DNA of 63,643 nucleotides, the filler included, from Calcarisporiella thermophila CBS 279.70 (Eukaryota; Fungi; Calcarisporiellomycota), in the NCBI RefSeq assembly GCF_041956535.1. It is 13 parts of 11 records of this genome, joined end to end, with 100 filler letters (N's around TTAATTAATTAA, not from the genome) between each part and the next. Parts side by side here need not be neighbours in the genome. Positions count along the whole stretch, not along the records: positions 1 to 3,650 come from NW_027192238.1; positions 3,751 to 7,356 come from NW_027192261.1; positions 7,457 to 24,049 come from NW_027192214.1; positions 24,150 to 28,302 come from NW_027192204.1; positions 28,403 to 35,729 come from NW_027192214.1; positions 35,830 to 38,891 come from NW_027192238.1; positions 38,992 to 45,244 come from NW_027192199.1; positions 45,345 to 47,022 come from NW_027192234.1; 5 more parts are not named here. One strand, written 5' to 3'. Numbering within the stretch: the stretch's first letter is position 1; each line of letters begins with the position of its first letter. This document shows, in pieces, positions 1,590 through 63,555 of the stretch. Position numbers and translations under genes: made by a program. Under the pieces are notes generated by a model. It searched no databases, was not told the DNA's origin, and saw only the letters and a program-made list of their open reading frames with translations.

Positions 1590-1924
1590 TTTTTTTTTTT
1601 GATCAATCAATGGAAACTTTTATTTAATTTCCATATATTACATGAAGTTAATGTCAATGGACTTAACGAGATATAGGTCTTTGATCGATAGACTTTCAAT
1701 CGATATGCGTGTATCGTAGTTGTCGTGAATAGCATGTACGTGAAACCGATGTAATCTTTTGTACTTATCGTAAGGGCGATCTTTTCAATAATCAAGACTC
1801 AGCTTCTGATCAAGTGGATAGCAGCCACAAACTAAGAGTAAGTGCTGGTGGGGGAAGTGGGATTCGAACCCACGCCATTCGCATCGGCATCCCAGGGATA
1901 GTCCACTACACTAACCCTTCCCCC
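1590..1924 (-). mobile_element. tRNA-derived SINE family 1, full-length copy
   Basis: A box, B box (GGTTCGAATCC) and poly(A) tail; TSD TATATCTATGTG(G/A)CT at 1576-1590 and 1925-1939; near-identical copies elsewhere in the window. Confidence 0.93.
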
Positions 1925-1982
1925 TATATCTATGTGACTGCCTCTGTGGCTTCCCCGTATAAAAACCAATTATCTCGTAACA
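1925..1982 (-). mobile_element. 5' end of gypsy LTR family A, interrupted by the SINE and LINE
   Basis: Reverse complement matches the start of the LTR at 44320 (TGTTACGAGATAATTGG...). Confidence 0.85.
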
Positions 1983-2004
1983 GAGCACACGAAACATCAG
2001 GGAA

Positions 2005-2076
2005 GCCGTTGTAGTATAATGGTTAGTACATCACGTTGTGGCCGTGATGATCCCGGTTCGATTCCGGGCAACGGCA
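2005..2076 (+). tRNA. tRNA-His(GTG)
   Basis: Cloverleaf with acceptor GCCGTTG/CAACGGC, anticodon arm TCACG-TTGTGGC-CGTGA and T loop TTCGATT. Confidence 0.95.
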
Positions 2077-2299
2077 TTCAAAATATTTTATCCCTTCGAA
2101 ATTTAATCAATAACAATTTTTTTTATATCCACTTGTATTGGATTTCTCAAGTTATTTTTTGATACAAAATTTAAGTAGTTATTCGATACTACTCGCTTAT
2201 TGCTATACTATCGGTAGCCTTTGAGCTCCAAGAAAAACCCTGCAAATTCTCTAGGGCGTGATCCCATTGCCAGAACCGAATCCGTAACAATGATTTGGC

Positions 2300-2983
2300 T
2301 CCGGAATTTTTTCAATATTAGCAAATTTTACTATATTTCAATGGTAATTGACACATAATTTCTATTTTGGTGGTTCAAGAGAATTGATCCTTTCTTGCGA
2401 TTAGCATTGCTTCCTCGAAATTGAAAGCTAACTCTTGGCTATAATCGATCTGGATTAGCGAGTTCTTTCCCCATTTCTGCTTGAATCTTACTTCACCATT
2501 TTTTCTCTGTGCCTGTATCTACTGTCCTTTCATTGTTATGAGAAGATCTGATAAGAAGGCACACTTGAATGTGATATCCGTACGTTCTAGGTTCTCCATG
2601 ATAATTTCAACCCTTGCCTTGTGTATGCTCCAAACCATGATGTCATGTAGTAGCATAGAGACTTGTCAATTTTTGAGTTGTGTCCTCTTAGACCCCGAAG
2701 AGATTTCCATACCTCTGGATGTTTGTACAGGGCTTATCTATTAAATAGCTTTCAATAGTTTTCAGTTCTCTAACATTCAAAGAAAGCGTGTTCTATGATC
2801 TCTACCTCTCCTCGTCGGCATCTCTTGCAATTGGGGCAGGATATATGTTTATTTTTTCAATAAAGGTCCTTTATTGAAAAGTACCCTATCCTGTTAAAAA
2901 GGCAGGGTAGCTTCTACCTCTAAATCACCCAGGAAATGCTCCTGCCCCAAGGCCAGGAGATATCATCATGAGCCCAATTAAAA
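2300..2983 (-). mobile_element. Degenerate LINE 3' fragments (ORF2 C-terminal remnant plus a poly(A)-tailed stub at ~2852-2983); boundaries approximate
   Basis: Minus-strand translation LLHDIMVWSIHKARVE resembles the other LINE C-termini here; 2385-2485 resembles 3155-3235 and 21085-21165; the stub tail resembles 39168-39209. Confidence 0.6.
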
Positions 2984-3254: not shown

Positions 3255-3563
3255 TTTTTTTTAAGAAGGATCTTTATTGAAAAGTTTTCTATACAAGTTA
3301 AATGCTGGGTTGTACAGCCCCCAATTTTTGCATGGAATTTCTGTTTTCTGATGTCTCAATATCTAAATAAGAAGTATATATGGTAGAGTTTCATTGAAGC
3401 ATTTTACTGCATTTCGGAGAAGTTGTAATGAAGTAGCTTTTAGCTCGATTCCTAGGGTATGTCCCGATCACATCTCTAGTGCCGATGCTGTCACCGGGAA
3501 TCGAACCCCGCACACAATGATTAAGATTCAGGGCTCTTAACCACTGTGCCATCCAAGGTCGGC
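3255..3563 (-). mobile_element. Candidate second SINE family (tRNA-like head, possibly Lys-derived; LINE-type tail)
   Basis: A box TGGCACAGTGG, B box GGTTCGATTCCC, unpaired acceptor stem, tail CAATAAAGATCC...poly(A), TSD TTATAT(G/T)AATAACGC at 3240-3254 and 3564-3578. Single copy in the window. Confidence 0.65.
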
Positions 3564-3650
3564 TTATATTAATAACGCAAAAAAAAGTGACTGCTAATTG
3601 TATTTATCTTATAAAAATTAATTTTATTACAACATTTTGTTACGGGCGAA

Positions 3651-7831: not shown

Positions 7832-7904
7832 GGTCACTTGGCTCAGTTGGCAGAGCGTCTGCCTAGTAAGCAGAAGGTCATGAGTTCGATTCTCATAGTG
7901 ACCA
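7832..7904 (+). tRNA. tRNA-Thr(AGT)
   Basis: Cloverleaf with acceptor GGTCACT/AGTGACC and anticodon arm TCTGC-CTAGTAA-GCAGA; identical to 28537-28609. Confidence 0.95.
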
Positions 7905-17254: not shown

Positions 17255-18164
17255 CACTGAGTATATTTTTCCAAAGTATATATGTATACTTGATAACATA
17301 TTAGTAGGGTGACTATTCTCGGTATCTGTTAAAGAGCTATAGCTGTTCATTATTTTTCAGTTTGCTAAATTTTTGTAGCACTTTCTATGTGTGTTAGTCT
17401 TATGTTCATACCCTTTTTCTCTTTTTGTGGCTCTTGCTTTTACATAATTCGCTCTATTATTTCCTCCACCAGTTAGTACATATTCATACTCGCCCTAATT
17501 ATAACCTATTGTATCATTCAAAAATAACATCTGAAGCTCTATTTTATGGTTTATTCTATAATTTAGAGGTTCTTGGTGACGAGGTATAAATTTTCCAAAG
17601 GACAAAATATAACGACCATTGATATCATTTTGAATTCGCGTTTTTTAAAAATATACTTTCGAGCTAATTGTAACCAATTCTGGCATAGTCTGTAAATCCA
17701 TAAAGGACCATATGGTTACGGAATTATCAAATGAATTTTTGCACCCAAAAAATAATCTAACGAGATTGAATTCCAGCACCTTGGAGATATATTTTATTGT
17801 ATTTGCTTTCTCTTATTCAAATGATGACTTCCAATCTAACCCTTCTTACCGTTTGAGATATTGGGATGAAATGGGCCGTAGACGGCGGTTTCGCCGGTCT
17901 TTGATTGTCGTATTCCGTGAAATTAATTCTAACATTTTAAGAATCATTTATTCCTAAGTTTCATTTGCCCCACAATCTATACTAGCATATTGCGCTTTAG
18001 TTTGATGGTGAGAGTATTGAAAAATAAATACATTAAACATAAATCAAAAACTTAAATGCATATCATCCAGAAAGAGATTTGGATTTAACAACCACCAAGT
18101 CAAATTTTCCTTAATTATGTCGCTGGTTCCATTTGACAAATTAGCAAAACAAAAAAAAGTATAT

Positions 18165-18656
18165 ACTTGGATGCAACCTCTGGCCAGGATTGAGGCACCA
18201 ATATGTTCGGCTCTAGAGAGCCGTTGCGCCGGAAGTGACGTCCTTGTCGGGTGGAGTATTCTACGACAGGCCTGCCGGCCAGGTGGAAGTGATAAAGTGG
18301 GAAACGGGGTGAGGGTGTTGTTGCGGTATATCAGTACACTCCGTGACCTTTGCAACTAAGCTCGGGGGTAAGTTGAGGTAACGGAGCTCCCATCCAAGAG
18401 AACGGCTGCAGTATCGGCGGTGGCACGCGTTCCTTAGCTTTTCAGTAGGGAGCGCAGAGTATTTACGCTCCAATTCCGATTGCCTTCCAATATTCCTGTC
18501 AAATAAAGCTTGATTATGGAGCGATCTGCACTCGATTTGTCCTCCCCAGCGTACGAAAGTTAGTATCTCATTGAGGAGGTATGGCGGTGTTGGGGGTTTT
18601 GGCTCCTCCATTTGTCGGCCCTCGTCTGTGATTAACGGGCACTTGTAGAGAGGTGG
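18165..18656 (-). mobile_element. LINE ORF2 C-terminal fragment
   Basis: High nucleotide identity to 38365-38819; followed by scaffold gap 18657-19489. Confidence 0.85.
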
Positions 18657-19489: not shown

Positions 19490-19810
19490 ATCAATGGAAA
19501 CTTTTATTTAATTTCCATATATTACATGAAGTTAATGTCAATGGACTTAACATAACAAGATATAGGTCCTTGATCGATAGACTTTCAATCGATATGCATG
19601 TATCGCAGTTGTCGTGAATAGCATGTACGTGAAACCGATGTAATCTTTTGTACTTATCGTAAGGGCGGTCTTTTCAATAATCAAGACTCAGCTTTTCAAT
19701 AATCAAGACTCAGCTTCTGATCAAGTGGATAGCAGTCACAAACTAAGAGTAAGTGCTGGTGGGGGAAGTGGGATTCGAACCCACGCCGTTCTCATCGGCA
19801 TCCCTTCCCC
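19490..19810 (-). mobile_element. SINE family 1 copy with internal head deletion and 22-bp tandem duplication
   Basis: Aligns to 1590-1924; lacks the A-box segment; CTTTTCAATAATCAAGACTCAG is duplicated. Confidence 0.9.
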
Positions 19811-19873
19811 CCTGAATCCCAGAGTGACTGCTTACGTGACTTCTCTGTACCAAAAACCAATATCCTCGTAACA
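19811..19873 (-). mobile_element. 5' end of gypsy LTR family B
   Basis: Reverse complement matches 45131 and 62841 (TGTTACGAGGATATTGG...). Confidence 0.85.
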
Positions 19874-19885: not shown

Positions 19886-19959
19886 GTTTTCGTGGTGTAG
19901 TTGGTTATCACGTCTGTCTAACACACAGACGGTCTCCGGTTCGAATCCGGACGAAAACA
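19886..19959 (+). tRNA. tRNA-Val(AAC)
   Basis: Acceptor GTTTTCG/CGAAAAC, anticodon arm TCTGT-CTAACAC-ACAGA, T-run terminator follows. Confidence 0.95.
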
Positions 19960-22190: not shown

Positions 22191-23675
22191 TTTTTTTTTT
22201 GAACAATCAATGGAGACTTTTATTAGTTTCCGTAGCTTACAAGAGTTTAATGATTACAATGAAATAAGAAAGGGGGGAATAAAGGGGTGGGGCTATATTT
22301 AGGTGGCAAGGTGGAAGTTAGATTTTGACGATTTATGTTAGCCCAGAAAGGGAGAGAAGAGAAGAAGGCAAAGAAACGCAAGGGGGTAAGAACATAGAGA
22401 AGGTGATAAACGTGGTGTAAGTGAATAAAGGGTAAATTAGATGTATATAGTGAATGGGTATTTGGTGAAAGGTATGAAGTAAAGAGGAGGGGAGGAGGGA
22501 GAGAACGGATTGGGAGAGAGGAAGGGTTGCTTCGTCACTCCAGTTTTAGTCTTGCTCTATCTGAACTTTCTATTACCGCTCCCTGACTGCACTACCTTCT
22601 TCGGAATAACTCTATCTCTCGTCTTTTTCGTGCCTTTATCAGTTCACCTCCGATAGCCTCCTCGATGTCCATTTTGGCACGGACGATGATTGTCTCGGGT
22701 GGTGCTCGAGTGCATTCGAAATGGTAGGCGATTCGATCCCGATGAATTTGCCATAGCACCGAATCGAAGATGATTTGAGCCGCGTGTCTTACTGTCCTCG
22801 GGGCTTCTGGTAGGTCGCCAAGTACGAGGTTCCTGGAGCTCAGCACCTGAGTGTTTAGGGGGCCTGAGATGGTGTTGATACACCTCTCCGCCCAATGCTA
22901 CACTGACGTGAGTTCGGGACATTCGAAGAAGGTATGACGGATGGTATCCCTCGGAGCGTTACAGCGGGTACATTTCGGGTCATGACCGGAGAATGTCGAG
23001 TTTGTAATTACACGCTCTATGAGAATTCGCCAGCGTAGTGTGCGGTGTTTTGGGAGGGTTGGCCGTTTTTGAATGGAGGTCCAGACCTTTTCCCATTCCT
23101 TTGCCGTGGATGCAACCTCTGGCCAGGATTGGGGCGTCAGCGTTTCTGGTTCCGGAGAGCCATTTCGCTGGAAGTGCCTTCCCTGTCGAGTGGAGTATTC
23201 CGGGACGGGCGCGCCAGCCAGGTGACAAAGGTGAAGTGGGAAGCGAGGAGGCGGATGTTGTCGAGGTATGACAGAACATTTCGTGATTTTCTCTACTAGG
23301 TCGGGGGACAGGATAAGGTATCCGTGTTCCCATTCTAAGGAAAAATCGTTATAGCGACGTTTGCACGCTCTTTTTAGCCTTTCCGTGGGTTGCGCAGGGT
23401 ATCTACGCTCCATTTCCAATTGTATCGGCATGTTCCGCTCCAAAAAGGCTTGTCGCCGGAGTGATCTACATTCTATTCTTCCTCCATTGATAAGGAAGGT
23501 TAGAATATCGTTTAGTAGATACGGCGGTGTTGGCGGTTTCGGCTCCTCAAATTGTCGACCTTGTTTCGTAATTAAAGGGCATTTGTACAAGGGTAAAGAC
23601 AGTACATCTGGAGTTGACCAGTTGGGTGACGCGACCGGGCCGCCTTCGAGAGTGCGCCACGCTTGATACGTATCC
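22191..23675 (-). mobile_element. 5'-truncated L1/Tx1-like LINE (zf-RVT region, 3' UTR, poly(A))
   Basis: CTRC...DTIRHTFFECP zinc motif; in-frame stop at 22898; 3' tail homologous to the SINE1 tail. Confidence 0.9.
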
Positions 23676-23691
23676 TCCCTCTCTACTCCGT

Positions 23692-28402: not shown

Positions 28403-28456
28403 AGATCAAGTGGACAGCAGCCACAAACTAAGAGTAAGTGCTGGTGGGGGACCCCC
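28403..28456 (-). mobile_element. SINE family 1, 5' part with collapsed tRNA head (at contig edge)
   Basis: GATCAAGTGGACAGCAGCCACAAACTAAGAGTAAGTGCTGGTGGGGGA is joined directly to CCCCC. Confidence 0.85.
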
Positions 28457-28536: not shown

Positions 28537-28609
28537 GGTCACTTGGCTCAGTTGGCAGAGCGTCTGCCTAGTAAGCAGAAGGTCATGAGTTCGATTCTCA
28601 TAGTGACCA
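28537..28609 (+). tRNA. tRNA-Thr(AGT)
   Basis: Identical to 7832-7904; TTTTT terminator follows. Confidence 0.95.
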
Positions 28610-35829: not shown

Positions 35830-36084
35830 AGGAGGGTACGGTGTTCTGGCAGTAGAGTGTTTTCAATGTGGCCTAGGAGTTCTTCTTGGTCCGCCGAGGA
35901 TGTTGGGCCGGCGGAGTATAGTTCTGTGTAGAAGCGGTTTGTTAGTATGGCCATTTCACTTGGGTCCTCAGTATTTACTCCGTCTGGCTTTTTGAGTGCC
36001 GTCATCGCGTTGACGGCTCGTCGACCCGCGATTCGGCGGTGGAAGTAGGCTGAGGATTTTTCCCCCGCGTCGGTCCACGTTATT
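35830..36084 (-). mobile_element. LINE ORF2 fragment (linker between endonuclease and RT), 5'-truncated at a TSD
   Basis: WTDAGEKSSAYFHR...FYTELYS, typical of L1/Tx1 ORF2. Confidence 0.85.
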
Positions 36085-36300
36085 CTGGGTAGTATATCTG
36101 TTTTTTTTTTGATCAAACTGGGTAGTATATCTTTTTTTTTTGGGATCTGGGTAGTATATCTGATTTTTTGATCAAAGTGGACAGCGATCACGAAATAATA
36201 GTGATGCTGGTGGGGGAAGTGGGATTCGAACCCACGCCTTTTCATTCGGCATCCCTGGGATAGTCCACTACACCATCCCTTCCCCCTGGGTAGTATATCT
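36085..36300. repeat. Four copies of CTGGGTAGTATATCT (stacked TSDs)
   Basis: Copies at 36085, 36118, 36147 and 36286, each pair separated by a poly(T)-headed insert. Confidence 0.92.
36164..36285 (-). mobile_element. Short (~120 bp) SINE variant: tRNA head plus short tail
   Basis: Same head as SINE1 but ends at TTGATC-poly(A) right after the first ~40-nt tail segment; flanked by the TSD. Confidence 0.85.
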
Positions 36301-36369: not shown

Positions 36370-36452
36370 CCGGCTATAGCTCAGCTGGTAGAGCGGAAGA
36401 CTGTAGTGTCTCAGCAATCTTTAGGTCCCTGGTTCGAATCCGGGTGGCCGGA
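36370..36452 (+). tRNA. tRNA-Tyr(GTA) with 10-nt intron (36407-36416)
   Basis: Acceptor CCGGCTA/TGGCCGG; anticodon arm GAAGA-CTGTAG[intron]A-TCTTT; canonical 37/38 intron position. Confidence 0.93.
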
Positions 36453-37185: not shown

Positions 37186-38886
37186 TGTTACGGGCAAAAG
37201 GAGTTTTGTGTGGAGGGGTATCCGGATCTTGATAGAAATAAGAGATTTATCTTAATAATTCAGGGAATTGGTGTTGAACATTAAAATAAACCAAAGGATT
37301 TAAATAGAATTGTGATCAAAGGAGAATAATTCTCACTGGTGTTCAAAGATGAGATAGATAAGACAACAAAGTATCAATCAACATCAACAAGATAGCCATG
37401 AGGGAGTATAAGGGTAACCACGAGGGCGGCGAGTAACCATGAGGGGTCGGCAACGTAGCGGTAATCAATTCTATTGGCTGCTCTACTTGAAAGATATCGC
37501 GCTTTCTGAACGTCTTTTTTTTTGATCAATGTTGAGTCTTTATTGTTTGTAAAGACTCTAAAGTACAATGGTTACATTAATAGAAGCAATAAAGTGAAGA
37601 GGTAACTAATGATGAAGCTTAAGGGGATAATTTAGAACGAATTGAAATGGTGGTCATGCCGGATTTCGGCGCAAAAGGTAGAGGAGTGGTGAGATTCAAC
37701 TAGCTGTGTATACCAAAGAATGACGTGAGAGATGGGGTGGAGAGTAAAAAGGAAGTAGAGGGTAGGAAGGAGATAAATTAGGGGTTACTGCATTATCCCA
37801 GTATCAGAGCCGCTCCGATCGTTCCTTCTCTAACCGCGCCCAGTTTGCACCACCTTTTTCGGAACTGTTCAATTTGCTGTTTTTTTTTGTGCTCGTATTA
37901 TTTCGGCTCCTATAGCTTCCTCAATATCTAATCTGGCCCGGTTGATGATTATTTCGGGTGAGACTCGGGTGCTTTCAAAATGGAAGGCAATTCGGTCTCG
38001 GTGGATTTGCCATAACACGGAGTCAAAGACAATTTGGGCTACGTGTCTCGCTGTTCTCGAGGATTCCGTTAGGTCTCCTAAAATGAGGTTGCGAGCAGTC
38101 AGCACCTGAGTATTCTGGGGCCCTGCGATGGTGACGATGCACCTCTCCGCCCATTGCCACACTGGCGTGAGTTCAGGACAATCGAAGAATGTATGGCGAA
38201 TTGTGCCTCTCGAAGCGTTGCATCGGGTGCACTTCGGGTCGTGACCGGGAAATGTCGAGTTAGTGATCACTCGTTCCACAAGAATTCGCCAGCGTAGCGC
38301 ACGGTGCTTTGGGAGAGTGGGGCGTTTGTGAACGAGGGTCCAGATTTTCTTCCAATCCTCGGGCGTAGATCCAGCCTCGGGCCAGGATTGAGGCACCAGT
38401 ATGTTCGGCTCTAAAGAGCCGTTGCGCCTGAAGTGACGTCCATGTCGGGTAGAGTATTCCGCTACGGGCCTGCCGGCCAGGTTGCAATGATAGAGTGGGA
38501 AACAAGGGTGAGAGTGTTGTTGCGGTATATCAGTGCACTCCGTGACCTTTGCAACTAAACTCGGGGGTAGGTTAATATACCCGTAGTCCCTTCTGTGAGA
38601 GTAGCTGCAGTAACGACGGCGACACGCGTTCCTTAGCTTTTCAGTGGGATGCGCAGAGTATCTACGCTCCATTTCCGATTGTCTTCCAATATTCCCGTCA
38701 AATAAAGCCTGAGTATGGAGCGATCTGCACTCGGTTTGTCCTCCCCAGCGTACAAAAGTAAGAATCTCATTGAGCAAGTATGGCGGTGTTGGGGGTTTTG
38801 GCTCCTCCATCTGCCGGCCCGCTTTCTGAATGTCTATGTGACTGCCTCTGTGGCTTCCCCGTACAAGAACCAACTATCTCGTAACA
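37186..38886 (-). mobile_element. Solo LTR (A/B-related) interrupted by a LINE
   Basis: TGTTACG...CGTAACA termini; matches the LTR at 44320 and the 3' end of 62841-63555; flanks ATAC/AAAC. Confidence 0.85.
37516..38819 (-). mobile_element. 5'-truncated L1/Tx1-like LINE with TSD
   Basis: zf-RVT motif CTRC...TIRHTFFDCP, poly(A), TSD CGCTTTCTGAA(C/T)GTCT at 37500-37515 and 38820-38835. Confidence 0.92.
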
Positions 38887-39219: not shown

Positions 39220-39548
39220 CCTCACTCCCCGAATCCCAGAGTGACTGCTTACGTGACTTCTCCGTACCAAAAACCAATATCCTCGTAACAATAATGTTAC
39301 AGGCAAAGGGAGATTTCGTGGAGAGCTGTGCGGATTCCTTAATAATAAAAATAAGAGATTGGTGTTTTAATAAAAGACTAATAATAGAACTAGCAATAAT
39401 AATAATAATAATAATATAATGAAACAATAGCTTATCCTCACCTTAATAATAAAAATAAGAGATTGGTAAGGAACAGTAAAACAAAATAGAGGGGTTTAAA
39501 TAGAATTAAGAGATAAAGAAAATAGCTCAACTGGTGTTCAAGGATAAT
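39220..39548 (-). mobile_element. LTR-B 5' end + ATAA + LTR-A 3' half, inverted relative to 44535-45201
   Basis: Reverse-complement match with a few substitutions; the SINE is absent. Confidence 0.85.
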
Positions 39549-42500
39549 TGGTACGGTTCTCCTGTGGAAGACCCAGTGAGTTGGCTTCGGAATTTTGAAC
39601 TCGTTAAAAAGGCCAACGGTTGGTCAGATGAAACCGCTTGTAGCGTTGTTGGCTCTCTGTGTCTGGGAAGTGCAGCCACCTGGTACCAACGTAATGAGTC
39701 CAATATGGATTCTTGGGGCAAGTTTCGTGAAGAGTTCCTGAAATATTATCGGTCAGGTGTGCGGAAGGAGATTTGGAGAACGGCACTACGGACCAAACGT
39801 CAACGAGCAGACGAATCAGTAGATTCGGTTGCGTCCGAAGTTCCAACCCTTCTTGAGAGGCTCGGAATTCATGGAAAGGAAGAGAGAATTCAATACTTCG
39901 TGGATGCTCTACGCCCTGAATTAGCCGCTCAAATTTATCGAACGGAACCACAGACCCTCGAGGCAGCTATTGAGATTGCTCGTCGTGAAGAGTTAATCGA
40001 GTTGCGGAGGAACGGTGGTATTAACGAACAATATCACGGAGGGCAAAGTCTAAATCGTGAGAACTTGGAGATGCAAGGTGGTTACTATCCACATGGGTAC
40101 CCGCCATGGGCAATGCCACCTAACCCTTGGAACATGCCGCCAGGACCGATGCACAGCATGCCGAATGTGTCGGCAGGCCGCCTTAATCCAGTCGAGCCAA
40201 ACAGGTTGGAGAAACGACTAGAAGATTTAACGACAATGGTGGAGTCTCTGGCATTAAACGCGCTTCAATACACTTCTAAAGCCGCTAAGGCGAAGAAAGA
40301 AAGCTCGATCAACAGGCGTGAGAACGATCAAGGCAGACGGTCAGGAAAGAACGTAAAGTGCAGGAGATGCCAAGCCTTTGGACATTATGCGAGCGAGTGT
40401 GAAGCCCCACACCCAGTTCCGCGTCGTCGAGATTCCAAGGAAGAACGTGATAAGGTATCAGTCCCCAAAGCCTCTCCAGTAGTTGGGTCGGATGCTCAGA
40501 CTTCCAATCTACCTGTGAACGCGATGGAATTTATGTTACCAGAAGAGGCCACGGATCTTGATGTGTTGATGGCCGAGCATACGACTACGAGAGTACCAGC
40601 GGAAGAGGTACGAGGAGAAGCTCCTAACCAACAAGTGGGCGGGGGAATGGTGGAATCACCTGCGCTGTCCAGGAGGGAGAATGAAATAGTGAACCCCTCC
40701 GAATTGGATCCAGTCCTGCGCCTGGGAGAAGCGTACTCGATTGCCGAGGATTTGACGACAGTACCGGCAAACATCACGATGGGCCAACTGCTACGCCATT
40801 CTCCTTCAGTACGACAAGAACTTACGAGATTGTTGCACAGGGTCGCTTTTGGAATAAATGCGGTTGACCTGGACGTAGGGTTGGAAGAGGAGGAATGCGA
40901 TATGGACCACTTCACGGCAGCTAGAGGCCAAATCACCATCAATAATCAACCGATCGAGGCCATCTCCGATTCGGGTGCAGCAACAAGCGTTATTACCAAA
41001 GGTCTGTTGCGAAAATTGAAGCTCAGTATTGATCGACCAGTTCACAAGTCGTTATCCACGGTGGGAGGAGGAAAAATACAGACGTTGGGATTGGTAACGA
41101 ATGTACCGATCCAGGTGGAAGGTATCACCGCTCCTGTTGGACTGCTTGTTTTCGATCGAGAGGACGACTGCATAATTCTGGGTAACAACTGGTTCAAGAT
41201 CAACCACGCGTACCCTGACGTCGACCGCGATGAATTAGTAATGCGTAGACCATTCGGGAGGGTAGTGTCACGTTTAGAGTGTATCGACAAGCGACGAACC
41301 TGTGATACGGCCGAATGTTATAGTTTGATGATCGCGGAAGAGCAGCAGGAAAAAGGAAAAGAAGATACAACGTATCTCTCGGCTGACGAACAGGAGAAGC
41401 TGAACGCCTTGTTGGGGGAATATGAGGATATATTCCATGGACTTGGGAGAACTGGAACGGTTGAACACCAGATCGAGACGGGAGATGCCAAGCCCATAAA
41501 GTGCACGCCATACAGAACCACGTGGCAAGACCAACAAATTATCAAGCGAGAGATCGAAGAAATGTTGGAGCAAGGAGTCATTGAACCAGCAATATCCCCT
41601 TGGGCCTTCCCAGTGGTTTTGGTGCGAAAGAAGAACGGGAAGATTCGATTTTGCGTGAATTTCCAAAAGTTGAACGACGTGACGAGCAAAGATACGTATC
41701 CGCTACCGCACATCAACGACATTCTTGACGCCTTACATGGAGCTACGGTGTTTTCGACACTAGATGCGGCCAGTGGATATTGGCAAGTCGCGCTTAAGGA
41801 GGAGGATCGGCCAAAAGCTACGTTTGTAACGAGATATGGTACATATCAATTTCGTGTGATGCCATTTGGTCTATGCAATGCGCCGGCTACCTTCCAACGA
41901 CTTATGGAACACGTTTTGGACGGGATGCTCTGGAAGAATGTAGTTGTCTTCATTGACGACATCAATGTGTATTCCCGGACGTTCGATGAACATGTGGAAC
42001 ACCTTCGTGCAGTATTTCAACGACTTAGAGTGCACAATTTGAAACTAAACCGGGACAAGTGTCGATTCGGGCAGAGGCAACTGAAATATCTGGGACATAC
42101 CATATCAGCAGGAGGTGTAGCTGTGGATGAATCGAAGATGGAGAAGCTGATGTGGATGCCGCGCCCGCAGTCGATAAGGGACGTTAGATGTTTTCTGGGA
42201 CTCGCGAGCTATTACCGACGTTTTATTCCGAAATTCAGTAACATCGCGATGCCGCTGCACCAGTTGACGTCCAAAGATCAGGAGTGGCGATGGAGAGAAG
42301 ATGTTGAAGAACAGGCATACCAAACCTTACGAGCAGCGCTAGTTAAACCACCGGTATTGGCGTATCCTAACCCAGACCTAGACCGGGAATTTCATCTAAT
42401 CACAGACGCAAGTGGTGAAGGATTGGGAGCAATTTTGGAGCAAGAGCAAGATAATGGAGAAAGAAAAGTGATCTCTTATGCCAGCCGAGGGTTACATCGG

Positions 42501-42779
42501 TCCGAGAAGAATTATGCCATAACGGATCTTGAAGCACTAGCCGTGGTGTGGGCTATAGGACATTTCCGGCATTATCTCGCAGGGCGACATTTCTGGCTTC
42601 ACACCGATCACTCGGCCTTGCGATGGGTTTTCCGTTCAGAGAATCCAACAGGAAGGATGGCCAGATGGAGTATTTTTCTCTCCCAGTTCGACTTCACCAC
42701 GAAGCATTGTAGGGGTAATGCCAACCCCGCAGACGGCCTTTCGAGACTTATTCCCGACTCACCCACGATGACGGGATAG
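39534..42779 (+). CDS. Ty3/gypsy gag-pol (capsid, CCHC, protease, RT, RNase H); 5' end replaced by an inverted LTR
   Basis: [44 protein letters not shown] and ADGLSR motifs. Confidence 0.95.
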   Translation: MFKDNWYGSPVEDPVSWLRNFELVKKANGWSDETACSVVGSLCLGSAATWYQRNESNMDSWGKFREEFLKYYRSGVRKEIWRTALRTKRQRADESVDSVASEVPTLLERLGIHGKEERIQYFVDALRPELAAQIYRTEPQTLEAAIEIARREELIELRRNGGINEQYHGGQSLNRENLEMQGGYYPHGYPPWAMPPNPWNMPPGPMHSMPNVSAGRLNPVEPNRLEKRLEDLTTMVESLALNALQYTSKAAKAKKESSINRRENDQGRRSGKNVKCRRCQAFGHYASECEAPHPVPRRRDSKEERDKVSVPKASPVVGSDAQTSNLPVNAMEFMLPEEATDLDVLMAEHTTTRVPAEEVRGEAPNQQVGGGMVESPALSRRENEIVNPSELDPVLRLGEAYSIAEDLTTVPANITMGQLLRHSPSVRQELTRLLHRVAFGINAVDLDVGLEEEECDMDHFTAARGQITINNQPIEAISDSGAATSVITKGLLRKLKLSIDRPVHKSLSTVGGGKIQTLGLVTNVPIQVEGITAPVGLLVFDREDDCIILGNNWFKINHAYPDVDRDELVMRRPFGRVVSRLECIDKRRTCDTAECYSLMIAEEQQEKGKEDTTYLSADEQEKLNALLGEYEDIFHGLGRTGTVEHQIETGDAKPIKCTPYRTTWQDQQIIKREIEEMLEQGVIEPAISPWAFPVVLVRKKNGKIRFCVNFQKLNDVTSKDTYPLPHINDILDALHGATVFSTLDAASGYWQVALKEEDRPKATFVTRYGTYQFRVMPFGLCNAPATFQRLMEHVLDGMLWKNVVVFIDDINVYSRTFDEHVEHLRAVFQRLRVHNLKLNRDKCRFGQRQLKYLGHTISAGGVAVDESKMEKLMWMPRPQSIRDVRCFLGLASYYRRFIPKFSNIAMPLHQLTSKDQEWRWREDVEEQAYQTLRAALVKPPVLAYPNPDLDREFHLITDASGEGLGAILEQEQDNGERKVISYASRGLHRSEKNYAITDLEALAVVWAIGHFRHYLAGRHFWLHTDHSALRWVFRSENPTGRMARWSIFLSQFDFTTKHCRGNANPADGLSRLIPDSPTMTG

Positions 42780-42904
42780 CGGCACTAGCAAGGACGACAC
42801 TTGAGGGACAAGGCCATTATAGACACGGTTTAATCGCTAAGGACAACGGTTCAGGATTTGACGGTTTTGACGATAATTCACTCGATTTACATCTATTTAC
42901 AACT

Positions 42905-44263
42905 ATGGAACAAGCTAAATATTATTCGATATATAACTATTTGAACAGCAAGACATACCCAATAGACGCGAACGATAAAACCAAGCAACAAGTGCGAAGC
43001 TGGGCAAGACCATACGCAATACGAGACGGTCGCCTGGTCAAGAGGAAATATACTGCTATACCAATCGAGTTACTACGCGAGGACAATGCCCGAGACGTCG
43101 TGGAGCGGGTTCACGCAGAAGGACACTTTGGCATCAACAATACGTGGAATAGAGTCCGCATTCGTTACGATGCCCCAAATTTATTCAATCTTGTACGGGA
43201 CGTGGTGACGAGGTGCGATACTTGTCAAAGGAGGCGACGACGAGGACCACGTCAGGCCGAGCTTCACCCAATGCTAATTCCTCCGCAACCTATGGAGATT
43301 ATGGGTATCGACGCTGCAGGGCCGCTACCACAAACTAAGAAGGGAAATCGGTACATTCTAGTAGCAGTAGACATGTTGAGTGGGTGGCCGATTGCAAGAG
43401 CAGTATCAAACATCACGACAGAAACAACTATCGATTTCCTTATCGCGGATGTTGTCTCGATATATGGGTGCCCGAAGCGACTTGTCTCCGATCAAGGTTC
43501 CAATTTTACCGGAGAACTCGTGCAGCAGTTTTTAAGGCGGTTGGAGATCCACCCGACACCAACTTCAGCATACCGACCAGAAGCAAACGGAAAGGTAGAG
43601 CGCATGAACCAGACTCTCAAGGCGACAATCGCGAAGATGTCACGTGGAAGGACTGATTGGGACGACGCACTACCATTGGCACTCATGGCTATTCGAGCAA
43701 AGCGACATGAAGCAACAGGATATAGCCCCTATGAAGTGTTATTCGGTATGCCGATGGTAACGCCAGCCCTTTGGACACCGCGAACAGAAGAAGAGGTTTT
43801 GGGAGGAGATCCCTCGGAGGCAGTTATACCACGCTTGGAAGTAATTAAGTCGACTTTAGGCGAGGTACGAGAGACAGCAGCTCAAAACTTAAGGTCAAGT
43901 CAGCTTAGAGCAGCTGCTAGATATAACAAGCGAGTAAAGAAGGTGACATTTCGACCCGGAGATCAAGTGATGGTTTATGACGAGACACCAGAGTCAACTT
44001 TCCATAATCGCTGGTTTGGACCGTTAACAATAACTCGGAGAGCAGGGTCTGACAGGTATCATTTGAGTCGACAAGGAAGAGAATTAACCATTCCAGTCCA
44101 TGCGGACCGTCTGCAACATTACATTCCTCCAGTATCAAGGCGACCGATTCCTAGTGTCATGGCAGCTACGTCGAAGGATACCACAGAGCCGCTAAGTCAG
44201 TCGAGGAAAACGATTAGGAGTATGTTAGCTCCGAGTGGACGGAAAAGAAGGGAGGACATTTGA
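42905..44263 (+). CDS. Ty3/gypsy integrase (HHCC, DDE, GPY/F-like end, no chromodomain)
   Basis: H..GHFG, CDTCQ, GIDAAGP, SDQGSNF, NGKVERMN and WFGP motifs; lies in a different frame from pol. Confidence 0.95.
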   Translation: MEQAKYYSIYNYLNSKTYPIDANDKTKQQVRSWARPYAIRDGRLVKRKYTAIPIELLREDNARDVVERVHAEGHFGINNTWNRVRIRYDAPNLFNLVRDVVTRCDTCQRRRRRGPRQAELHPMLIPPQPMEIMGIDAAGPLPQTKKGNRYILVAVDMLSGWPIARAVSNITTETTIDFLIADVVSIYGCPKRLVSDQGSNFTGELVQQFLRRLEIHPTPTSAYRPEANGKVERMNQTLKATIAKMSRGRTDWDDALPLALMAIRAKRHEATGYSPYEVLFGMPMVTPALWTPRTEEEVLGGDPSEAVIPRLEVIKSTLGEVRETAAQNLRSSQLRAAARYNKRVKKVTFRPGDQVMVYDETPESTFHNRWFGPLTITRRAGSDRYHLSRQGRELTIPVHADRLQHYIPPVSRRPIPSVMAATSKDTTEPLSQSRKTIRSMLAPSGRKRREDI

Positions 44264-44319
44264 GGAAGGGTAGCGCTGCGAAAAGTCGGTCAGGAGCCTC
44301 GACTTAACCAAGGGGGAGA

Positions 44320-45126
44320 TGTTACGAGATAATTGGTTTTTGTACGGGGAAGTCACAGAGGCAGTCACATAGGCATTCAGGAAGCGCGATATCTTTAAAG
44401 TGGAGCAGCCAATAGAATTGTTTACCGCTACGTTGCCGACCTTTCGTGGTTACTCGCCGCCCTCGTGGTTACTCTTATGCTCCCTCGTGGTTACTTTGTT
44501 GAGGTTGATTGCTATTTTGTTGGTTTATCTTTGTTTATCCTTGAACACCAGTTGAGCTATTTCCTTTATCTCTTAATTCTATTTAAACCTCTCTATTTTG
44601 TTTTACTGTTCCTCACCAATCTCTTATTTTTATTATTAAGGTGAGGATAAGCTATTATTTCATTATATTATTATTATTATTATTATTATTATTAGTCTTT
44701 TATTAAAACACCAATCTCTTATTTTTTTTTTATCAATCAATGGAAACTTTTATTTAATTTCCATATATTACATGAAGTTAATGTCAATGGACTTGACATA
44801 ACGAGATATAGGTCCTTGATCGATAGACTTTCAATCGATATGTGTGTATCGTAGTTGACGTGAATAGCATGTATGTGAAACCAATGTAATCGTTGTACTT
44901 ATCGTAAGGGCGATCTTTTCAATAATCAAGACTCAGCTTCTGATCAAGTGGATAGCAGTCACAAACTAAGAGTAAGTGCTGGTGGGGGAAGTGGGATTCG
45001 AACCCACGCCGTTCTCGTCGGCATACCAGGGATAATCCACTACACTAACCCTCCCCCACCAATCTCTTATTTTTATTATTAAGGAATCCGCACAGCTCTC
45101 CACGAAATCTCCCTTTGCCTGTAACA
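44320..45126 (+). mobile_element. 3' LTR (family A) preceded by PPT, containing a SINE
   Basis: PPT AAGGGGGAGA at 44310-44319; TGTTAC...GTAACA termini. Confidence 0.92.
44722..45056 (-). mobile_element. SINE family 1, full-length copy
   Basis: TSD CACCAATCTCTTA at 44709 and 45057; the empty site is visible in the inverted copy near 39360. Confidence 0.93.
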
Positions 45127-45130
45127 TTAT

Positions 45131-52870: not shown

Positions 52871-52942
52871 TGCCCATTATGGGATTCGAACCCACGATCT
52901 TCTGTTTACAAGACAGACGCCTTACCACTTGGCCAAACGGGC
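52871..52942 (-). tRNA. tRNA-Thr(TGT)
   Basis: Acceptor GCCCGTT/AATGGGC, anticodon arm TCTGT-CTTGTAA-ACAGA. Confidence 0.93.
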
Positions 52943-52953
52943 ACAACATGACT

Positions 52954-53012
52954 TGTTATGAGAAAATTGTTTTTGGTACCAGCAAGTCACTTTGACAGCC
53001 ACTAAGGTGTTC
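52954..53012 (+). mobile_element. Diverged LTR A/B-like 5' end
   Basis: TGTTATGAGAAAATTGTTTTTGGTACC...AAGTCAC...CAGCCAC resembles the LTR-A and LTR-B starts. Confidence 0.65.
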
Positions 53013-53027
53013 GAGAGCCTCTCCTCT

Positions 53028-53365
53028 GGGGGAGGGTTAGTGTAGTGGACTATCCCTGGGATGCCGATGAGAACGGCGTGGGTTCGAATCCCACTTCCCC
53101 CACCAGCACTTACTCTTAGTTTGTGGCTGCTATCCACTTGATCAGAAGCTGAGTCTTGATTATTGAAAAGATCGCCCTTACGATAAGTACAACGATTACA
53201 TTGGTTTCACGTACATGCTATTCACGTCAACTACGATACACGCATATCGATTGAATGTCTATCGATCAAGGACCTATATCTCGTTATGTTAAGTCCGTTG
53301 ACATTAACTTCATGTAATATATGGAAATTAAATAAAAAGTTTCCATTAATTGATCAAAAAAAAAA
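53028..53365 (+). mobile_element. SINE family 1, full-length copy
   Basis: Perfect 15-bp TSD GAGAGCCTCTCCTCT at 53013 and 53366. Confidence 0.95.
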
Positions 53366-53380
53366 GAGAGCCTCTCCTCT

Positions 53381-54009
53381 TCCCTCGGCCGTGCGTATAT
53401 CCAGCAAAGGCAAAAGGTGAGCATCGCTATACTGCCATCGAAACTATTGAGTAAACATCCATCCATCATATTGTGCTGAAAAATACAATGGAGGGAAATG
53501 GTCGATGGATGGAGTTGGATGAAAGACAAAAAGATACAATAGTTGAATTTCGCAGATCATCATTTTATACGTGATGGCTATGAATAAATTGTTGGGATAT
53601 CTTCAGAGAATGGAGACTATCTATTACTCTGTATTGGATTCCTCTTCATTTCATCTCTACTCTCACTCCTCGGTAAAGTCCACATGATCAACTCTCGATT
53701 ATTGTCTCGAATATGGTACGTGGCCACAATTATACGCCCACCTGAATACTTCTTCAAAGAGCTGGACGAAAAAATACGGCAGTTCTTATGGGACGGACGT
53801 GGCCCGCAAATCAGTCTCAAATTGCTAGCAAAATCCCGAGAAGAAGGTGGACTTGGACTCATTCTCCCTCGCCACCAAACAACAGCCCTACTTGCCTCAT
53901 AGATACCAAAGTTCGCAGAGGTACTAAAAAGGCCTAACCAAGACCCAAAAACACCTCTGTGGGCAAGCATTCTGAAGCATAATCTCTTGAGCATGTACGC
54001 TCCATTCGG
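53381..54009 (+). mobile_element. Degenerate LINE ORF2 fragment (post-RT region)
   Basis: GKVHMINSRLLSRIWY...FLW...EGGLGL motif. Confidence 0.8.
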
Positions 54010-59912: not shown

Positions 59913-59999
59913 TGTAACAGGGCTCGTAAGGTAGACAAGTGATCTTAATAGAATATAGAGATCGGTGAGGAGCAAAAAGAAACAATAGGTGGTGTTACA
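59913..59999. mobile_element. Possible internally deleted solo LTR remnant
   Basis: TGTAACA...TGTTACA termini and a GGTGAGG core as in family D; no TSD. Confidence 0.4.
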
Positions 60000-62743
60000 A
60001 GAGTATTTCTACTTTTGGGCTTCTCTATAATAGTAGTCATCTTTGTTGTTATCTTGACGATATTTATTATTGTTAGCTTGCTGATCTGTTGTTGTTTTTA
60101 CCTTATTTTCTGAAAGACGAATTTTTAGTTTGATTTTTATGTTCTCATCTTTGAGCTATTTTTTATTCTCTACTTCAATTTAAACACATCCATTTTGTCA
60201 TTGAATTAGCAGTTAGTTCGAGAAAATGCGCGTACCCCGACAGTGAAAAGCTCATCGGGTAATTTGGGCCAGATAGAAGTCATAGTTCCTTGCCCACCAT
60301 GGTTTTCAGTTTGGAGGGTTGCAGCTGTAGCGACATTACAGTTTGAATTGAGTCCAGCTTCAATATCTTCTTTATGAGGTCTCACTCGTTTATGTTTGAG
60401 TAGCAGGCTGAATTGTGTCCATATACCCATAATGTTGTCTTTATGCACAAGTATGTGTTAGAAAATCGAGTGAATGGCCTTTCAAAAATAAATAATCAAA
60501 ATAGCACGACTCCAAAGTTAAATCTCTTTATATAGAATTTATTTTCCCTATGATAACATTTGATATTGGACATGAACTTTTCTCAAAGTTTCACCTCGCT
60601 AAAAAAGGTAAGGAAATGGAGTAGTTTTGCTATGCAAATATCTGGTAAGAAAAGTTTTTAACAATGAAACCAATTTTTTTCACAAGCACTTCGATCTCGA
60701 TATTCGGATATAATCGCCTATAATCTAATCTAAATAAAATTACTATACTGTGTCGATTGTATTATGTTCCAAAACTTTAAAATAAATGCCAAGAGTGGAA
60801 CATTTCATTTTTTGCCTTGAGAAGCAAGAACTCATAATGTAAAATAGTATTGTTAATTTTCACACATATACTACGTATATGAAATCATTGGCAGATTTCT
60901 AGAATAAACAGCTTTTAAGTTTTGTGGTCCATCTCAATACAACCGATACAAGATTGGAGAGACACATAATTCCACATCTACTACCGAGGGAAAGTGACAT
61001 AGAGGGATATAGCTCCGATTGAATTATTCCAATTTCTAAAGAACGATTAATTAAATAAAAAATGATGACGTAGTGTTTATTCACAGATACTATGAATCGA
61101 AACTAACAAATATAGCTGTTACATATGTTACTTTCAGATCTTCTTAATCTCTGTCTACGTAGCGACGTCATCATTTATTGGATATATATACGTACATTTG
61201 AGATTGTAATAAATTAATAAGGAGTTAAATCTTTCTCTCCAACTAAAAACCCCCGTCACAATAGCAACCGTATCAAAAAAGCCACATTGAACAATTTTTA
61301 TTGTTTTAAATTTCGATCAGATTGATTCAAAGTAAAAGTAATTAACAGGAAAGCCAGTCATATTGTAATAGACATAATTAATCGTGCGTGAGATTAATAC
61401 AACATAAATTCATACATATTTTTTTCAACTCCACTGACCATCAGTGCGCTAGGATGGCAAAGATTTGTTGTATAGAATACGCGTACTCTGCACTAGTGAT
61501 TAATCGATGGTAGTTAATGGTCTGCTAGCCAAATAAAATGCAGGCTATACATTCATTGTCTTAGATCATCCTGCACGGTAACAGACAAAAGATAATTAGA
61601 CCCTCTTTAAATAATATGGGAGTTTCCAATCTTGATCAGACATACCGCATTTAGATTTTGAAGAATCAGCGTTTCAGAACTCTCTGCAACAGTATTAATA
61701 TTTNNNNNNNNNNNNNNNNNNNNNNNNNNNNNNNNNNNNNNNNNNNNTTAATTAATTAANNNNNNNNNNNNNNNNNNNNNNNNNNNNNNNNNNNNNNNNN
61801 NNNGAGGATAATTTTCAATAAAGGTCCTTTGTTAAATAAAAACATTATTTTCTATCTCCTATTTTTTTTTTGAGATCTCTAGTGTACCTCGGATACCATC
61901 CATCCTACACAATTGCTTACGCGTAGCAAGCACCCAGAAAACCAAAGGCCCAGATGAGAAACCAACTCTGGAGAATTTCAGTGCAATGGAAAACTTCTCC
62001 ACGATTACTGTCCCTCATTAATGTCCCTTACACATCATATTTCTTGTGTCTGGATTCTCTGCTATTACATTCTTACCTGTCCTGCAATTTCTGCCAGTAA
62101 TTGGCTATAATCTACACAAAGAAGATCTTTGAATCCTCTTTTCAATTAATGTCGATAGGATACTTTACAATAAAGATCCATAATTAAAAAATCCTTATTC
62201 TTTTTTATTTTGATCTACCTCTCTCTTTTCTCCCGATGAAAAAGACTTTGAGCATGTTCACATTTTGTTACTCAAATGTATTAATTTTCTATAAAATATT
62301 TCATTTTTCGTATATGCTAGAGTAAGCCAAGAGCAAAACCTGATATTGGTATTGACGTAGTAAATAGGAAATATTGAAACAATCGGGCAAATCTTTATAA
62401 AATAGGGGGCGAATTAATATATCTGGCTTTGATTGACTATGGTTGCAGGAATCCAATGGAACCCGTGGTACTCAGCATCAGAACTGGATATACCATAAAA
62501 TGCGTGTTTCAGGAGGTAGTATAACATGTTCGACACTCACAACAATTGATAACTGTATACGAGCTTGTGGACATTGATGCCTGAGTTCGTTTCTAGCTCC
62601 TCAACATCAGCATTTTAGATTATTCCCCCAAGATTTTCTCTCCCCTACGAAGAGACTACTGAAGTATACAAAAAGATGATGGGCGGATTAGTTTCCGGAC
62701 AATTAGAGACATTAGTTTTATAAAAAGAGGTTTGCAATAAAAG

Positions 62744-62825
62744 TGACGAGAGTGGGATTCGAACCCACGCCTCCGAAGAGATCACGGCCTTAACGTGACG
62801 CCTTAGACCGCTCGGCCATCTCGCC
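62744..62825 (-). tRNA. tRNA-Leu(AAG)
   Basis: Acceptor GGCGAGA/TCTCGTC, anticodon arm TCACG-TTAAGGC-CGTGA, long variable arm. Confidence 0.95.
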
Positions 62826-62840
62826 TATCACATTTGTTAT

Positions 62841-63555
62841 TGTTACGAGGATATTGGTTTTTGGTACGGAAAAGTCACATAAGCAGTCACTTAGATACTC
62901 GGGAGGTGAGGGGGGAGGGTTAGTGTAGTGGACTATCCCTGGTATGCCGATGAGAACGGCGTGGGTTCGAATCCCACCTCCCCCACCAGCACTTACTCTT
63001 AGTTTGTGACTGCTGTCCACTTGATCAGAAGCTGAGTCTTGATTATTGAAAAGATCGCCCTTACGATAAGTAAAAAGATTACATTGGTTTCACGTACATG
63101 CTATTCACGACAACTACGATACACGCATATCGATTGAACGTCTATCGATCCAGGACCTATATCTCGTTATGTTAAGTCCATTGACATAAACTTCATGTAA
63201 TATATGGAAATTAAATAAAAGTTTCCATTGATTGATCAAAAAAAAAAAATACTCGGGAGGTGAGATGGTGGTCTTTACAGTAAGCCGGTTCACCCGAAGA
63301 CATCACATGACCGAAGTTAAGGTTGCATTGTTGATCTTTTGTTGTTTCTTTGTGATCGTTTGTTTTGGAAAGATGCATTTTTAGTTCATCCTTGGGAACA
63401 TCTATTTCGAGTCATTTTCTTGATTTCCCATCCCTATTTAAACCCATCTATTTTGTCTTGTTGTCCTCACCAATTTCCCTGAATTATAAAGATAAATTCC
63501 TTATTTTATCAAGATCCGGACACCCCTCCACACAAACCTCCTTTCACCCGTAACA
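62841..63555 (+). mobile_element. Solo LTR family B containing a SINE
   Basis: TGTTACG...CGTAACA termini, 4-bp TSD TTAT, 15 bp upstream of tRNA-Leu. Confidence 0.9.
62911..63249 (+). mobile_element. SINE family 1, full-length copy
   Basis: Perfect TSD TACTCGGGAGGTGAG at 62896 and 63250. Confidence 0.95.

Follow-up and report, generated by a model that had tools for sequence, protein, structure and literature searches.

Non-LTR retrotransposons at a near-constant distance upstream of tRNA genes in the fungus Calcarisporiella thermophila: a candidate tRNA gene-targeting LINE/SINE system

In Dictyostelium discoideum, TRE5-A, a retrotransposon without long terminal repeats (non-LTR), inserts at tRNA genes strictly head-to-head, with 80% of insertions within 47 ± 3 bp, and its targeting depends on the B box (PMC5391098). 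The protein encoded by its first open reading frame (ORF1) binds TBP in vitro, and a non-autonomous derivative is mobilized in trans (PMC5391098). The same genome carries DGLT-A, which inserts 13 to 33 bp from tRNA genes (PMC5911963). Table 1 of PMC5911963 lists non-LTR targeting of tRNA genes for dictyostelids only, and section 11 of PMC5006619 calls TRE targeting unique to that group. Here we analyze a 63,643-nt stretch of DNA (the window) from the fungus Calcarisporiella thermophila CBS 279.70, in which a short interspersed nuclear element (SINE1) and long interspersed nuclear elements (LINEs) lie next to tRNA genes. The window consists of 13 small contigs joined by N spacers (N44-12mer-N44). 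A spermidine synthase stretch at 13334-13891 matches a gene model of this Mucoromycota fungus at 100% identity over 185 aa, in keeping with the species of origin.

A preliminary description of this DNA had claimed position- and orientation-specific insertion. Within the window this held up: SINE1 begins 75 to 85 nt upstream of the tRNA gene whether the flank is LTR or unrelated DNA, and the sites share no nick consensus. We favor, at a probability of about 0.55, the reading that the LINE, with the SINE in trans, would have been inserted position specifically in the manner of TRE5, by docking on the RNA polymerase III (Pol III) complex. In the literature that we searched, which excluded subscription papers, Repbase, and supplements, we found no fungal LINE and no SINE of any kind with such tRNA gene targeting.

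Distance, orientation, and target sites of SINE1

We scored tRNA genes with Rfam and ran ARAGORN alongside. Rfam found seven (55.6 to 73.8 bits), each where the preliminary description had placed it:

2005..2076, plus strand: tRNA-His(GTG), 69.1 bits, also called by ARAGORN
19886..19959, plus strand: tRNA-Val(AAC)
28537..28609, plus strand: tRNA-Thr(AGT)
36370..36452, plus strand: tRNA-Tyr(GTA)
52871..52942, minus strand: tRNA-Thr(TGT)
62744..62825, minus strand: tRNA-Leu(AAG)
7832..7904, plus strand: tRNA-Thr(AGT), upstream zone free of insertions

The three tRNA-Thr genes are told apart below as Thr28537, Thr52942, and Thr7832. Two extra ARAGORN calls ("tRNA-???") were SINE heads, not tRNA genes. 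We rejected the possibility that the targets themselves are miscalled SINE heads, given their Rfam scores of 55 to 74 bits and the T-runs that follow six of the seven within 10 nt.

SINE1, about 335 nt long, has the makeup of a tRNA-derived SINE: a tRNA-cloverleaf head with A and B boxes, a unique and unrelated body, a LINE-like hairpin tail, poly(A), target-site duplications (TSDs), and dispersed near-identical copies. In the window there are five long copies (95 to 97% identical), a fragment of the head, and a subfamily copy of 123 nt (83 to 84% identical to the long copies):

1590..1924, minus strand: SINE1, 80 nt upstream of tRNA-His, in the 5' end of a gypsy LTR; 14-bp TSD with one mismatch
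19490..19810, minus strand: SINE1, 75 nt upstream of tRNA-Val, with a deletion in the head and an internal duplication of 22 nt; the 3' end runs into an N gap
28403..28456, minus strand: SINE1 head at a contig edge, 80 nt (85 nt if truncated) upstream of Thr28537; internally deleted or 5'-truncated
36164..36286, minus strand: copy of a short SINE1 subfamily (123 nt), 83 nt upstream of tRNA-Tyr; TSD of 16 bp
53028..53365, plus strand: SINE1, 85 nt upstream of Thr52942; 15-bp TSD
62911..63249, plus strand: SINE1, 85 nt upstream of tRNA-Leu; 15-bp TSD, full cloverleaf head with A and B boxes
44722..45057, minus strand: SINE1 lacking a neighboring tRNA gene; it lies antisense within the 3' part of a gypsy LTR, with an LTR-LTR junction about 70 nt away

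Distances were counted as intervening bases from tRNA +1 to the SINE 5' end. At the six tRNA loci they average 81.3 nt (standard deviation [SD], 3.8 nt) and fall in an 11-nt range. SINE1 is head-to-head with the gene at 6/6 of these loci, which lie on six different contigs. Therefore, the fixed spacing described earlier was reproduced, with tRNA-Tyr corrected from 84 to 83 nt. Six of the seven tRNA genes and six of the seven clear SINE1 copies fit the upstream geometry. By binomial estimates, the probability of at least 6 of 7 is 2e-17 for a head-to-head zone of 70 to 90 nt, which was chosen post hoc, and 4e-4 under the laxest model (±500 nt, any orientation, tRNA-bearing contigs only). The seventh gene, Thr7832, has only a 13-nt SINE-head-like stretch (7457-7469, at the contig start), 362 nt upstream. 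Because tRNA types and TSDs differ among the loci, we rejected segmental duplication of a tRNA-LTR-SINE unit.

TSDs were present in 11 of 12 elements examined (12 to 16 bp in 10 and about 18 bp in one), and none was found at the copy of a second family, SINE2, that was examined. The SINE1 3' ends at tRNA-Val and Thr28537 are in an N gap and at a contig edge, respectively, so SINE1 TSDs are readable at four tRNA loci only. They measure 14 bp (tRNA-His, one mismatch), 16 bp (tRNA-Tyr), 15 bp (Thr52942), and 15 bp (tRNA-Leu), and their sequences all differ, in agreement with the locus-specific TSDs of about 15 bp first reported. Counted from the start of the mature tRNA, the first nicks at four loci lie 66, 67, 70, and 70 nt upstream. 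At tRNA-Tyr, copies of one 13- to 16-bp TSD stand between the short SINE, the two tiny tails, and a truncated LINE, so that four insertions at one site re-used the identical nick. Across nine independent nick sites there was no consensus (P = 0.87 and 0.20; maximum base frequency, 5/9), and thus no conserved target sequence of the Tx1 type at the nick. A TSD consensus that explains the sites, the alternative raised in the preliminary description, was therefore not found.

These elements resemble TRE5-A, TRE5-B, and TRE5-C of D. discoideum, which combine an L1-type layout of apurinic/apyrimidinic endonuclease (APE), reverse transcriptase (RT), and zinc finger with head-to-head insertion in a narrow window at many tRNA types (PMC5391098, PMC5911963). 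They also resemble TRE5-A.2, a non-autonomous partner mobilized in trans to the same target (PMC5391098, PMC5911963). As with TRE5, orientation is uniform (6/6 SINEs, 2/2 readable LINE ends, and 27/27 non-LTR pieces antisense to the tRNA gene), and the range is narrow at all six tRNA loci and independent of the flank. However, Table 1 of PMC5911963 gives TRE5 a window of 40 to 54 bp (47 ± 3), whereas the distance here is 75 to 85 nt. Therefore, the fungal system may work like TRE5, but we do not file it as TRE5. Furthermore, as described, the TRE5 partner is an ORF2-deleted LINE that keeps ORF1, whereas here it is a true tRNA-headed SINE in a fungal host. NLTR-B of Polysphondylium pallidum is a similar case, an independent non-LTR lineage found 39 to 64 bp upstream of tRNA genes, but it has an RNase H domain after the RT and a shorter distance, whereas the fungal elements end in zf-RVT (PMC5911963, PMC5006619).

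Some further observations concern the SINE heads and the tRNA gene flanks. A CCA-like stretch closes the acceptor stem of the head at 62911-62990, as if a mature tRNA had been copied, and two SINE1 copies (at tRNA-Val and Thr28537) have deletions within the head hairpin. The same 12-nt motif occurs at 1983-1994 and about 7801-7812, 22 and 31 nt upstream of tRNA-His and Thr7832, and is possibly an upstream Pol III promoter element. The stretches 53366-53650 and 7470-7760, upstream of Thr52942 and Thr7832, have no clear match elsewhere in the window and are possibly further inserted elements.

LINEs, stacks, and a Ty3/gypsy element at the same genes

The LINE pieces and the minor SINE families are as follows:

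1..1567, minus strand: 5' part of an L1-group LINE behind the His SINE; frameshifted ORF1 (ATG at 1560, end at about 399) and the APE start of ORF2 (348 to 1)
35830..36085, minus strand: 5'-truncated LINE (APE-RT linker) that starts at the Tyr TSD; matches the ORF2 of metagenomic relative L004 (E = 4e-9)
36086..36163, minus strand: two tiny poly(A)-tail insertions at tRNA-Tyr, parted by further copies of the same TSD
18163..18656, minus strand: fragment of LINE family A, parted from the Val SINE in front of it by an 833-N gap; its 5' end is outside view
53672..54009, plus strand: LINE ORF2 post-RT fragment, recognizable from 53672 by alignment to full-length relatives
37515..38820, minus strand: LINE family A, 5'-truncated, 66 nt into an LTR whose 5' end (38886) is 5 nt from the contig end; zf-RVT, 14-bp TSD
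22191..23690, minus strand: 3' part of LINE family B, with the tail that best matches the SINE1 tail
21713-22172, 36919-37175, and 61994-62191: SINE2, a further tRNA-headed family, three copies
3255-3564: SINE3, a further tRNA-headed family, one copy

By their sequence features, we assign the LINEs to the L1 group (L1/Tx1). ORF2 starts with APE and ends with a zinc domain, in pieces from different copies, and the elements have a nucleic acid-binding knuckle in ORF1, a poly(A) end, and variable TSDs. The knuckle of the LINE at tRNA-His is of the CCHC type (CX2CX4HX4C; CCHC/ZCCHC3-like Atlas clusters, 0.91 to 0.94). Its ORF2 start matches the endonuclease of human L1 ORF2p (E = 2.5e-4), and the Exo_endo_phos profile gave E = 9e-4, below the cut-off. 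The C-terminal zf-RVT domain scored above the cut-off in three fragments. Aligned to full-length relatives, the linker and post-RT pieces flank the RT, a segment that is itself outside the window. Families A and B share 71% DNA identity, and families D and E are about 25 to 33% identical to A and B in protein.

Among the nearest Atlas clusters are two whose members are mostly Mucoromycota. At high identity, the LINE fragments match only C. thermophila gene models. At least 13 other LINE-derived models lie outside the window on scaffolds of 2 kb to 1.35 Mb, and models that are copies of LINE A or B occur on scaffolds of up to 1.35 Mb. A word search for longer ORF2 relatives found none among 1166 candidates. 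Three of 21 LINE gene models examined (P0122, P0129, and P0132) fuse LINE A/B with the sequence of another element, a weak sign of stacks genome-wide. Many "uncharacterized proteins" of C. thermophila are LINE fragments, and gene model P0118 (2030-2077 and 1046-1513), in which antisense tRNA-His is the first coding exon and is spliced to LINE ORF1, is spurious.

Two other fungal L1-clade elements have a positional bias. Grem-LINE1 of Mucor circinelloides, in the Mucoromycotina, shares the CCHC and APE-RT-zf-RVT layout but is pericentromeric, and the word "tRNA" is absent from the main text of the preprint (10.1101/706580). Zorro3 of Candida albicans, as described in PMC7175516, targets poly(A) instead, with Zorro elements at poly(A) or subtelomeric sites.

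As an established rule, SINE tails mimic those of their LINE. The SINE1 tail matches the LINE B tail at 49/60 nt and three other tails at 37 to 38/60, and SINE1 and LINE B share a tail hairpin with an A-rich, poly(A)-signal-like loop. Therefore, LINE family B is the likely partner of SINE1, and the proposal that an L1-group LINE mobilizes the SINE in trans gains support from the shared 3' tail. The SINE2 and SINE3 tails resemble a third tail type (23691-24027). SINE3 lies on top of a D-family tail, after which the same TSD recurs, and an LTR 3' end is 74 nt away, where the contig stops.

LINE 5' ends had been described in the same zone as the SINE ends at three loci, and two stood. At tRNA-His the LINE 5' end (1575-1560) is about 80 to 95 nt from the tRNA gene when the lengths of the SINE and one TSD are taken off, and at tRNA-Tyr it is at the site of the SINE (about 36085). 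The third, at about 53010, did not stand: LINE homology begins at 53672, about 375 nt from the tRNA gene after the SINE and TSD are subtracted. The intervening sequence (53366-53650) had no match elsewhere in the window and failed to align with any of the LINE proteins tried.

BLAST identified 25 non-LTR pieces on the six tRNA contigs, ten of them their own prototypes, and the two Tyr tails bring the set to 27. All 27 are antisense to the tRNA gene; they form 11 stacks, so they are not independent. The sole plus-strand match on these contigs is 27 nt of the palindromic tail hairpin. Five of the seven tRNA-less contigs (2, 4, 8, 9, and 12) have no non-LTR pieces, contig 7 has three, and a match on contig 11 proved to be gypsy RT. 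The gene-rich stretches of contigs 3 and 5 also lack such pieces.

A second class of retrotransposon lies even closer to the tRNA genes. The roughly 60 nt between SINE and tRNA at tRNA-His, tRNA-Val, Thr52942, and tRNA-Leu is the 5' end of a gypsy LTR, and the same sequence starts the 3' LTR at 44320, directly after a polypurine tract and the gag-pol ORFs:

39510..45126, plus strand: Ty3/gypsy element with gag, protease, RT, RNase H, integrase, polypurine tract, and 3' LTR from 44320; source family of the tRNA-adjacent LTRs
1925..1982, minus strand: gypsy LTR 5' end, 22 nt upstream of tRNA-His; 93 to 96% identical to 38830-38886 and 44320-44372
19811..19873, minus strand: gypsy LTR 5' end, 12 nt upstream of tRNA-Val
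52954..53027, plus strand: diverged gypsy LTR 5' end, 11 nt upstream of Thr52942, with the SINE TSD at its end; 0/2000 shuffles reach its score
62841..63555, plus strand: solo gypsy LTR, complete (TGTTAC...GTAACA) but interrupted by the SINE, 15 nt upstream of tRNA-Leu; about 361 nt without the insert, 4-bp TSD

Therefore, several SINE targets are indeed LTR DNA, as first noted, and all come from one family, 11 to 22 nt upstream of four of the seven tRNA genes. At tRNA-Leu the SINE has LTR sequence on either side. The LTR thus preceded the SINE, which held to its distance across foreign DNA. These tRNA genes are used by retrotransposons of two classes, a second targeting layer beyond the earlier account, and the gypsy family likely targets them independently. 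Its domain order, TG...CA LTR, and near-tRNA insertion are like those of Ty3 and DGLT-A, and a 4-bp TSD is seen at one locus only. Among the Ty3/gypsy elements at tRNA genes (Ty3, Tca8/beta, Tyl3/Tyl6/Ylt1, Tj1, and DGLT-A; PMC5911963), Table 1 of that source gives DGLT-A (13 to 33) and Tca8 (6 to 30) ranges that cover the LTR distances here. The cases it describes are in ascomycete yeasts and amoebae, not Mucoromycota, and DGLT-A inserts either way, whereas the four LTRs here all point away from the tRNA gene (PMC5911963). Helenus, with tRNA-bearing LTRs in fungi (PMC10886601), has a different architecture. A search of viral contigs for the gypsy integrase gave one 32% match; a tRNA lies 4.5 kb from it, with no evident link.

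The gypsy gag at 39548 adjoins an inverted LTR. A 145-bp inverted repeat, 100% identical, spans 39220-39364 and 45057-45201 and consists of LTR end, 4-bp junction, and LTR start. In one copy the junction is faced by a SINE; in the other copy a LINE faces it from the opposite side. Both lie about 70 nt from it. Because the LTR-LTR junction lies within an identical inverted repeat, both assembly collapse and displacement of a tRNA gene by a later gypsy insertion are possible. Elsewhere, an ORF at 47622-49478 has RT, RNase H, and Dam-type methyltransferase domains, which we take to be the layout of DIRS/Ngaro tyrosine-recombinase retrotransposons; an unannotated ORF (50235-51197) adjoins it.

Position or sequence as the target

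If the insertions arise by docking, the LINE ribonucleoprotein would bind the Pol III factors of the tRNA gene, and its APE endonuclease would nick just upstream of them, about 66 to 70 nt upstream. Target-primed reverse transcription would then leave the element 5' end facing the tRNA gene. SINE RNA, recognized through its LINE-like tail hairpin, would be carried in trans to the same site, and each new insertion would push older ones outward to build one-directional stacks. We propose that SINE and LINE copies often land in an LTR because the gypsy LTR lies beside the same tRNA genes.

The loci without a clear LTR carry weight here. The flank at Thr28537 has no LTR similarity (shuffle P = 0.34), and the distance is still 80 nt. 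At tRNA-Tyr, where the distance is 83 nt, an LTR relic in the flank is doubtful at best (P = 0.10). Conversely, the LTR 5' ends at 44320 and 45131, with no tRNA gene beside them, are unoccupied. At the four LTR loci, the offset within the LTR is 58 to 74 nt (SD, 7.1) and the distance to the tRNA gene has an SD of 4.8. The LTR offset falls as the gap between tRNA and LTR grows (r = -0.74, n = 4).

Several results weigh against docking on the Pol III complex. The comparison of LTR and tRNA as reference points is not significant. Four of six SINE sites and LINE A (38820) lie 58 to 80 nt from the same LTR 5' end. The SINE at 44722-45057 has no tRNA gene on its contig, with 187 nt to the contig end, and both it and two further pieces (a LINE and a tail; 39168-39219) face an LTR-LTR junction that lacks a tRNA gene; the only B box at that junction, on contig 7, is the SINE's own. 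Moreover, 15 of the 27 non-LTR pieces are downstream of the visible tRNA gene, from about 270 to 550 nt, and they fit position targeting only if further tRNA genes lie beyond the contig ends. The window itself is broken at repeats and is not a random sample of the genome. Metagenomes, in which we kept 80 loci of 456 confirmed distant L1/Tx1 relatives (25 to 35% identity), are at most weak counterevidence and say nothing decisive either way about targeting: no credible tRNA gene was found upstream of these 80, but many contigs end at the element.

Of the downstream stacks, those on contigs 1, 3, and 6 keep their TSDs nearest the contig end (3564, 24027, and 38820), and a SINE2 copy further in has none. 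This suggests that they may have grown from an unseen tRNA gene past the contig end. A TRE3-like downstream class is another possible account of the downstream pieces.

The metagenomic set gave some further observations. Five strict ARAGORN calls at the 80 loci were rejected, four having "introns" of 474 to 1992 nt and one wrapping the contig ends. Rfam found no tRNA at the 17 of the 80 loci on which it was run, and in L004, the best relative, the roughly 260 nt ahead of ORF1 contain no tRNA. The SINE body pattern had 0 matches in the metagenome contigs. In L007, two U1 snRNA genes (Rfam; 6046-6205 and 7563-7726) follow the L1/Tx1 relative, which is possibly a Tx1 element that targets snRNA arrays. 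B-box motifs lie just 3' of four Tx1-like elements, on the same strand (L019:5619, L020:5927, L021:5434, and L072:2350), and these elements are possibly inserted into tRNA genes or arrays. L002 and L003, circularly permuted contigs of one LINE (a tandem array), contain in the 3' region a partial 5' half that resembles a tRNA.

An unlikely alternative is that the endonuclease cuts at a chromatin boundary upstream of active tRNA genes, namely the first nucleosome or the border of the nucleosome-depleted zone, and does so without touching TFIIIB directly. The first nicks, 66 to 70 nt upstream, are further out than the TRE5 window, and in yeast, Ty1 makes use of the strongly ordered nucleosomes upstream of tRNA genes (PMC5911963). 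One orientation is also common to several distinct LINE families (A/B versus D/E). However, open chromatin alone should permit both orientations, and the single orientation of 27/27 pieces, together with the 11-nt range, suggests an asymmetric protein contact.

We consider it more doubtful that the LINE and SINE recognize the gypsy LTR 5'-end sequence and that only the LTR element targets tRNA genes. The LTR sites listed above, to which the two pieces at 39168-39219 can be added at 58 to 80 nt into the LTR, speak for this, as does a CAGTCAC-like motif before most sites, including tRNA-Tyr and the SINE3 site at 3564 (flank LTR-similar, P = 0.03). There is also precedent in the crocodilian families Tx1-Mar/SINEU, Tx1-8_Crp, and Tx1-4_AMi, which insert into LTR retrotransposons or Mariner-N4, with LINE and SINE sharing a target and forming TSD-parted tandems (PMC4494074). 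However, the crocodilian families are described as following a target sequence (PMC4494074), whereas the constant here is the distance to the tRNA gene. The nicks have no consensus and spread over about 18 nt relative to the motif (counted by eye), Thr28537 shows the same distance without an LTR, and the SINE at 44722 is antisense in the 3' part of an LTR while the 5' ends at 44320 and 45131 are empty.

Finally, largely unspecific insertion, with near-tRNA copies surviving and being over-represented in a set of 13 small joined contigs when at least 13 other LINE-derived models lie elsewhere, is improbable, because retention would not fix the distance to ±5 nt, the orientation, or the re-use of an identical nick at tRNA-Tyr, and it is opposed by the P of 4e-4 under the laxest model and by gene-rich stretches free of non-LTR pieces.

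A possible fungal lineage of tRNA gene-targeting LINEs

We regard it as evenly balanced whether fungi have their own lineage of L1-group LINEs that docks on the Pol III complex independently of the TREs and carries SINEs, in a two-tier arrangement with a Ty3-like element. If so, position-specific, Pol III-targeted insertion would have made SINE1 a Pol III gene that stands back-to-back with a tRNA gene of the host. The SINE and the co-occurring Ty3-like layer are new here. In the literature that we found, non-LTR integration at tRNA genes by position rather than sequence is known only from dictyostelids, and the fungal case would be a further convergence. It would allow tests of how a host complex steers an APE-type LINE, with a ruler of about 80 versus about 47 bp, and a SINE that inherits targeting without encoding ORF1 would bear on which LINE protein docks in trans. 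A LINE that seeks safe harbors and carries a 340-nt passenger RNA may also be of interest for RNA-templated gene insertion tools.

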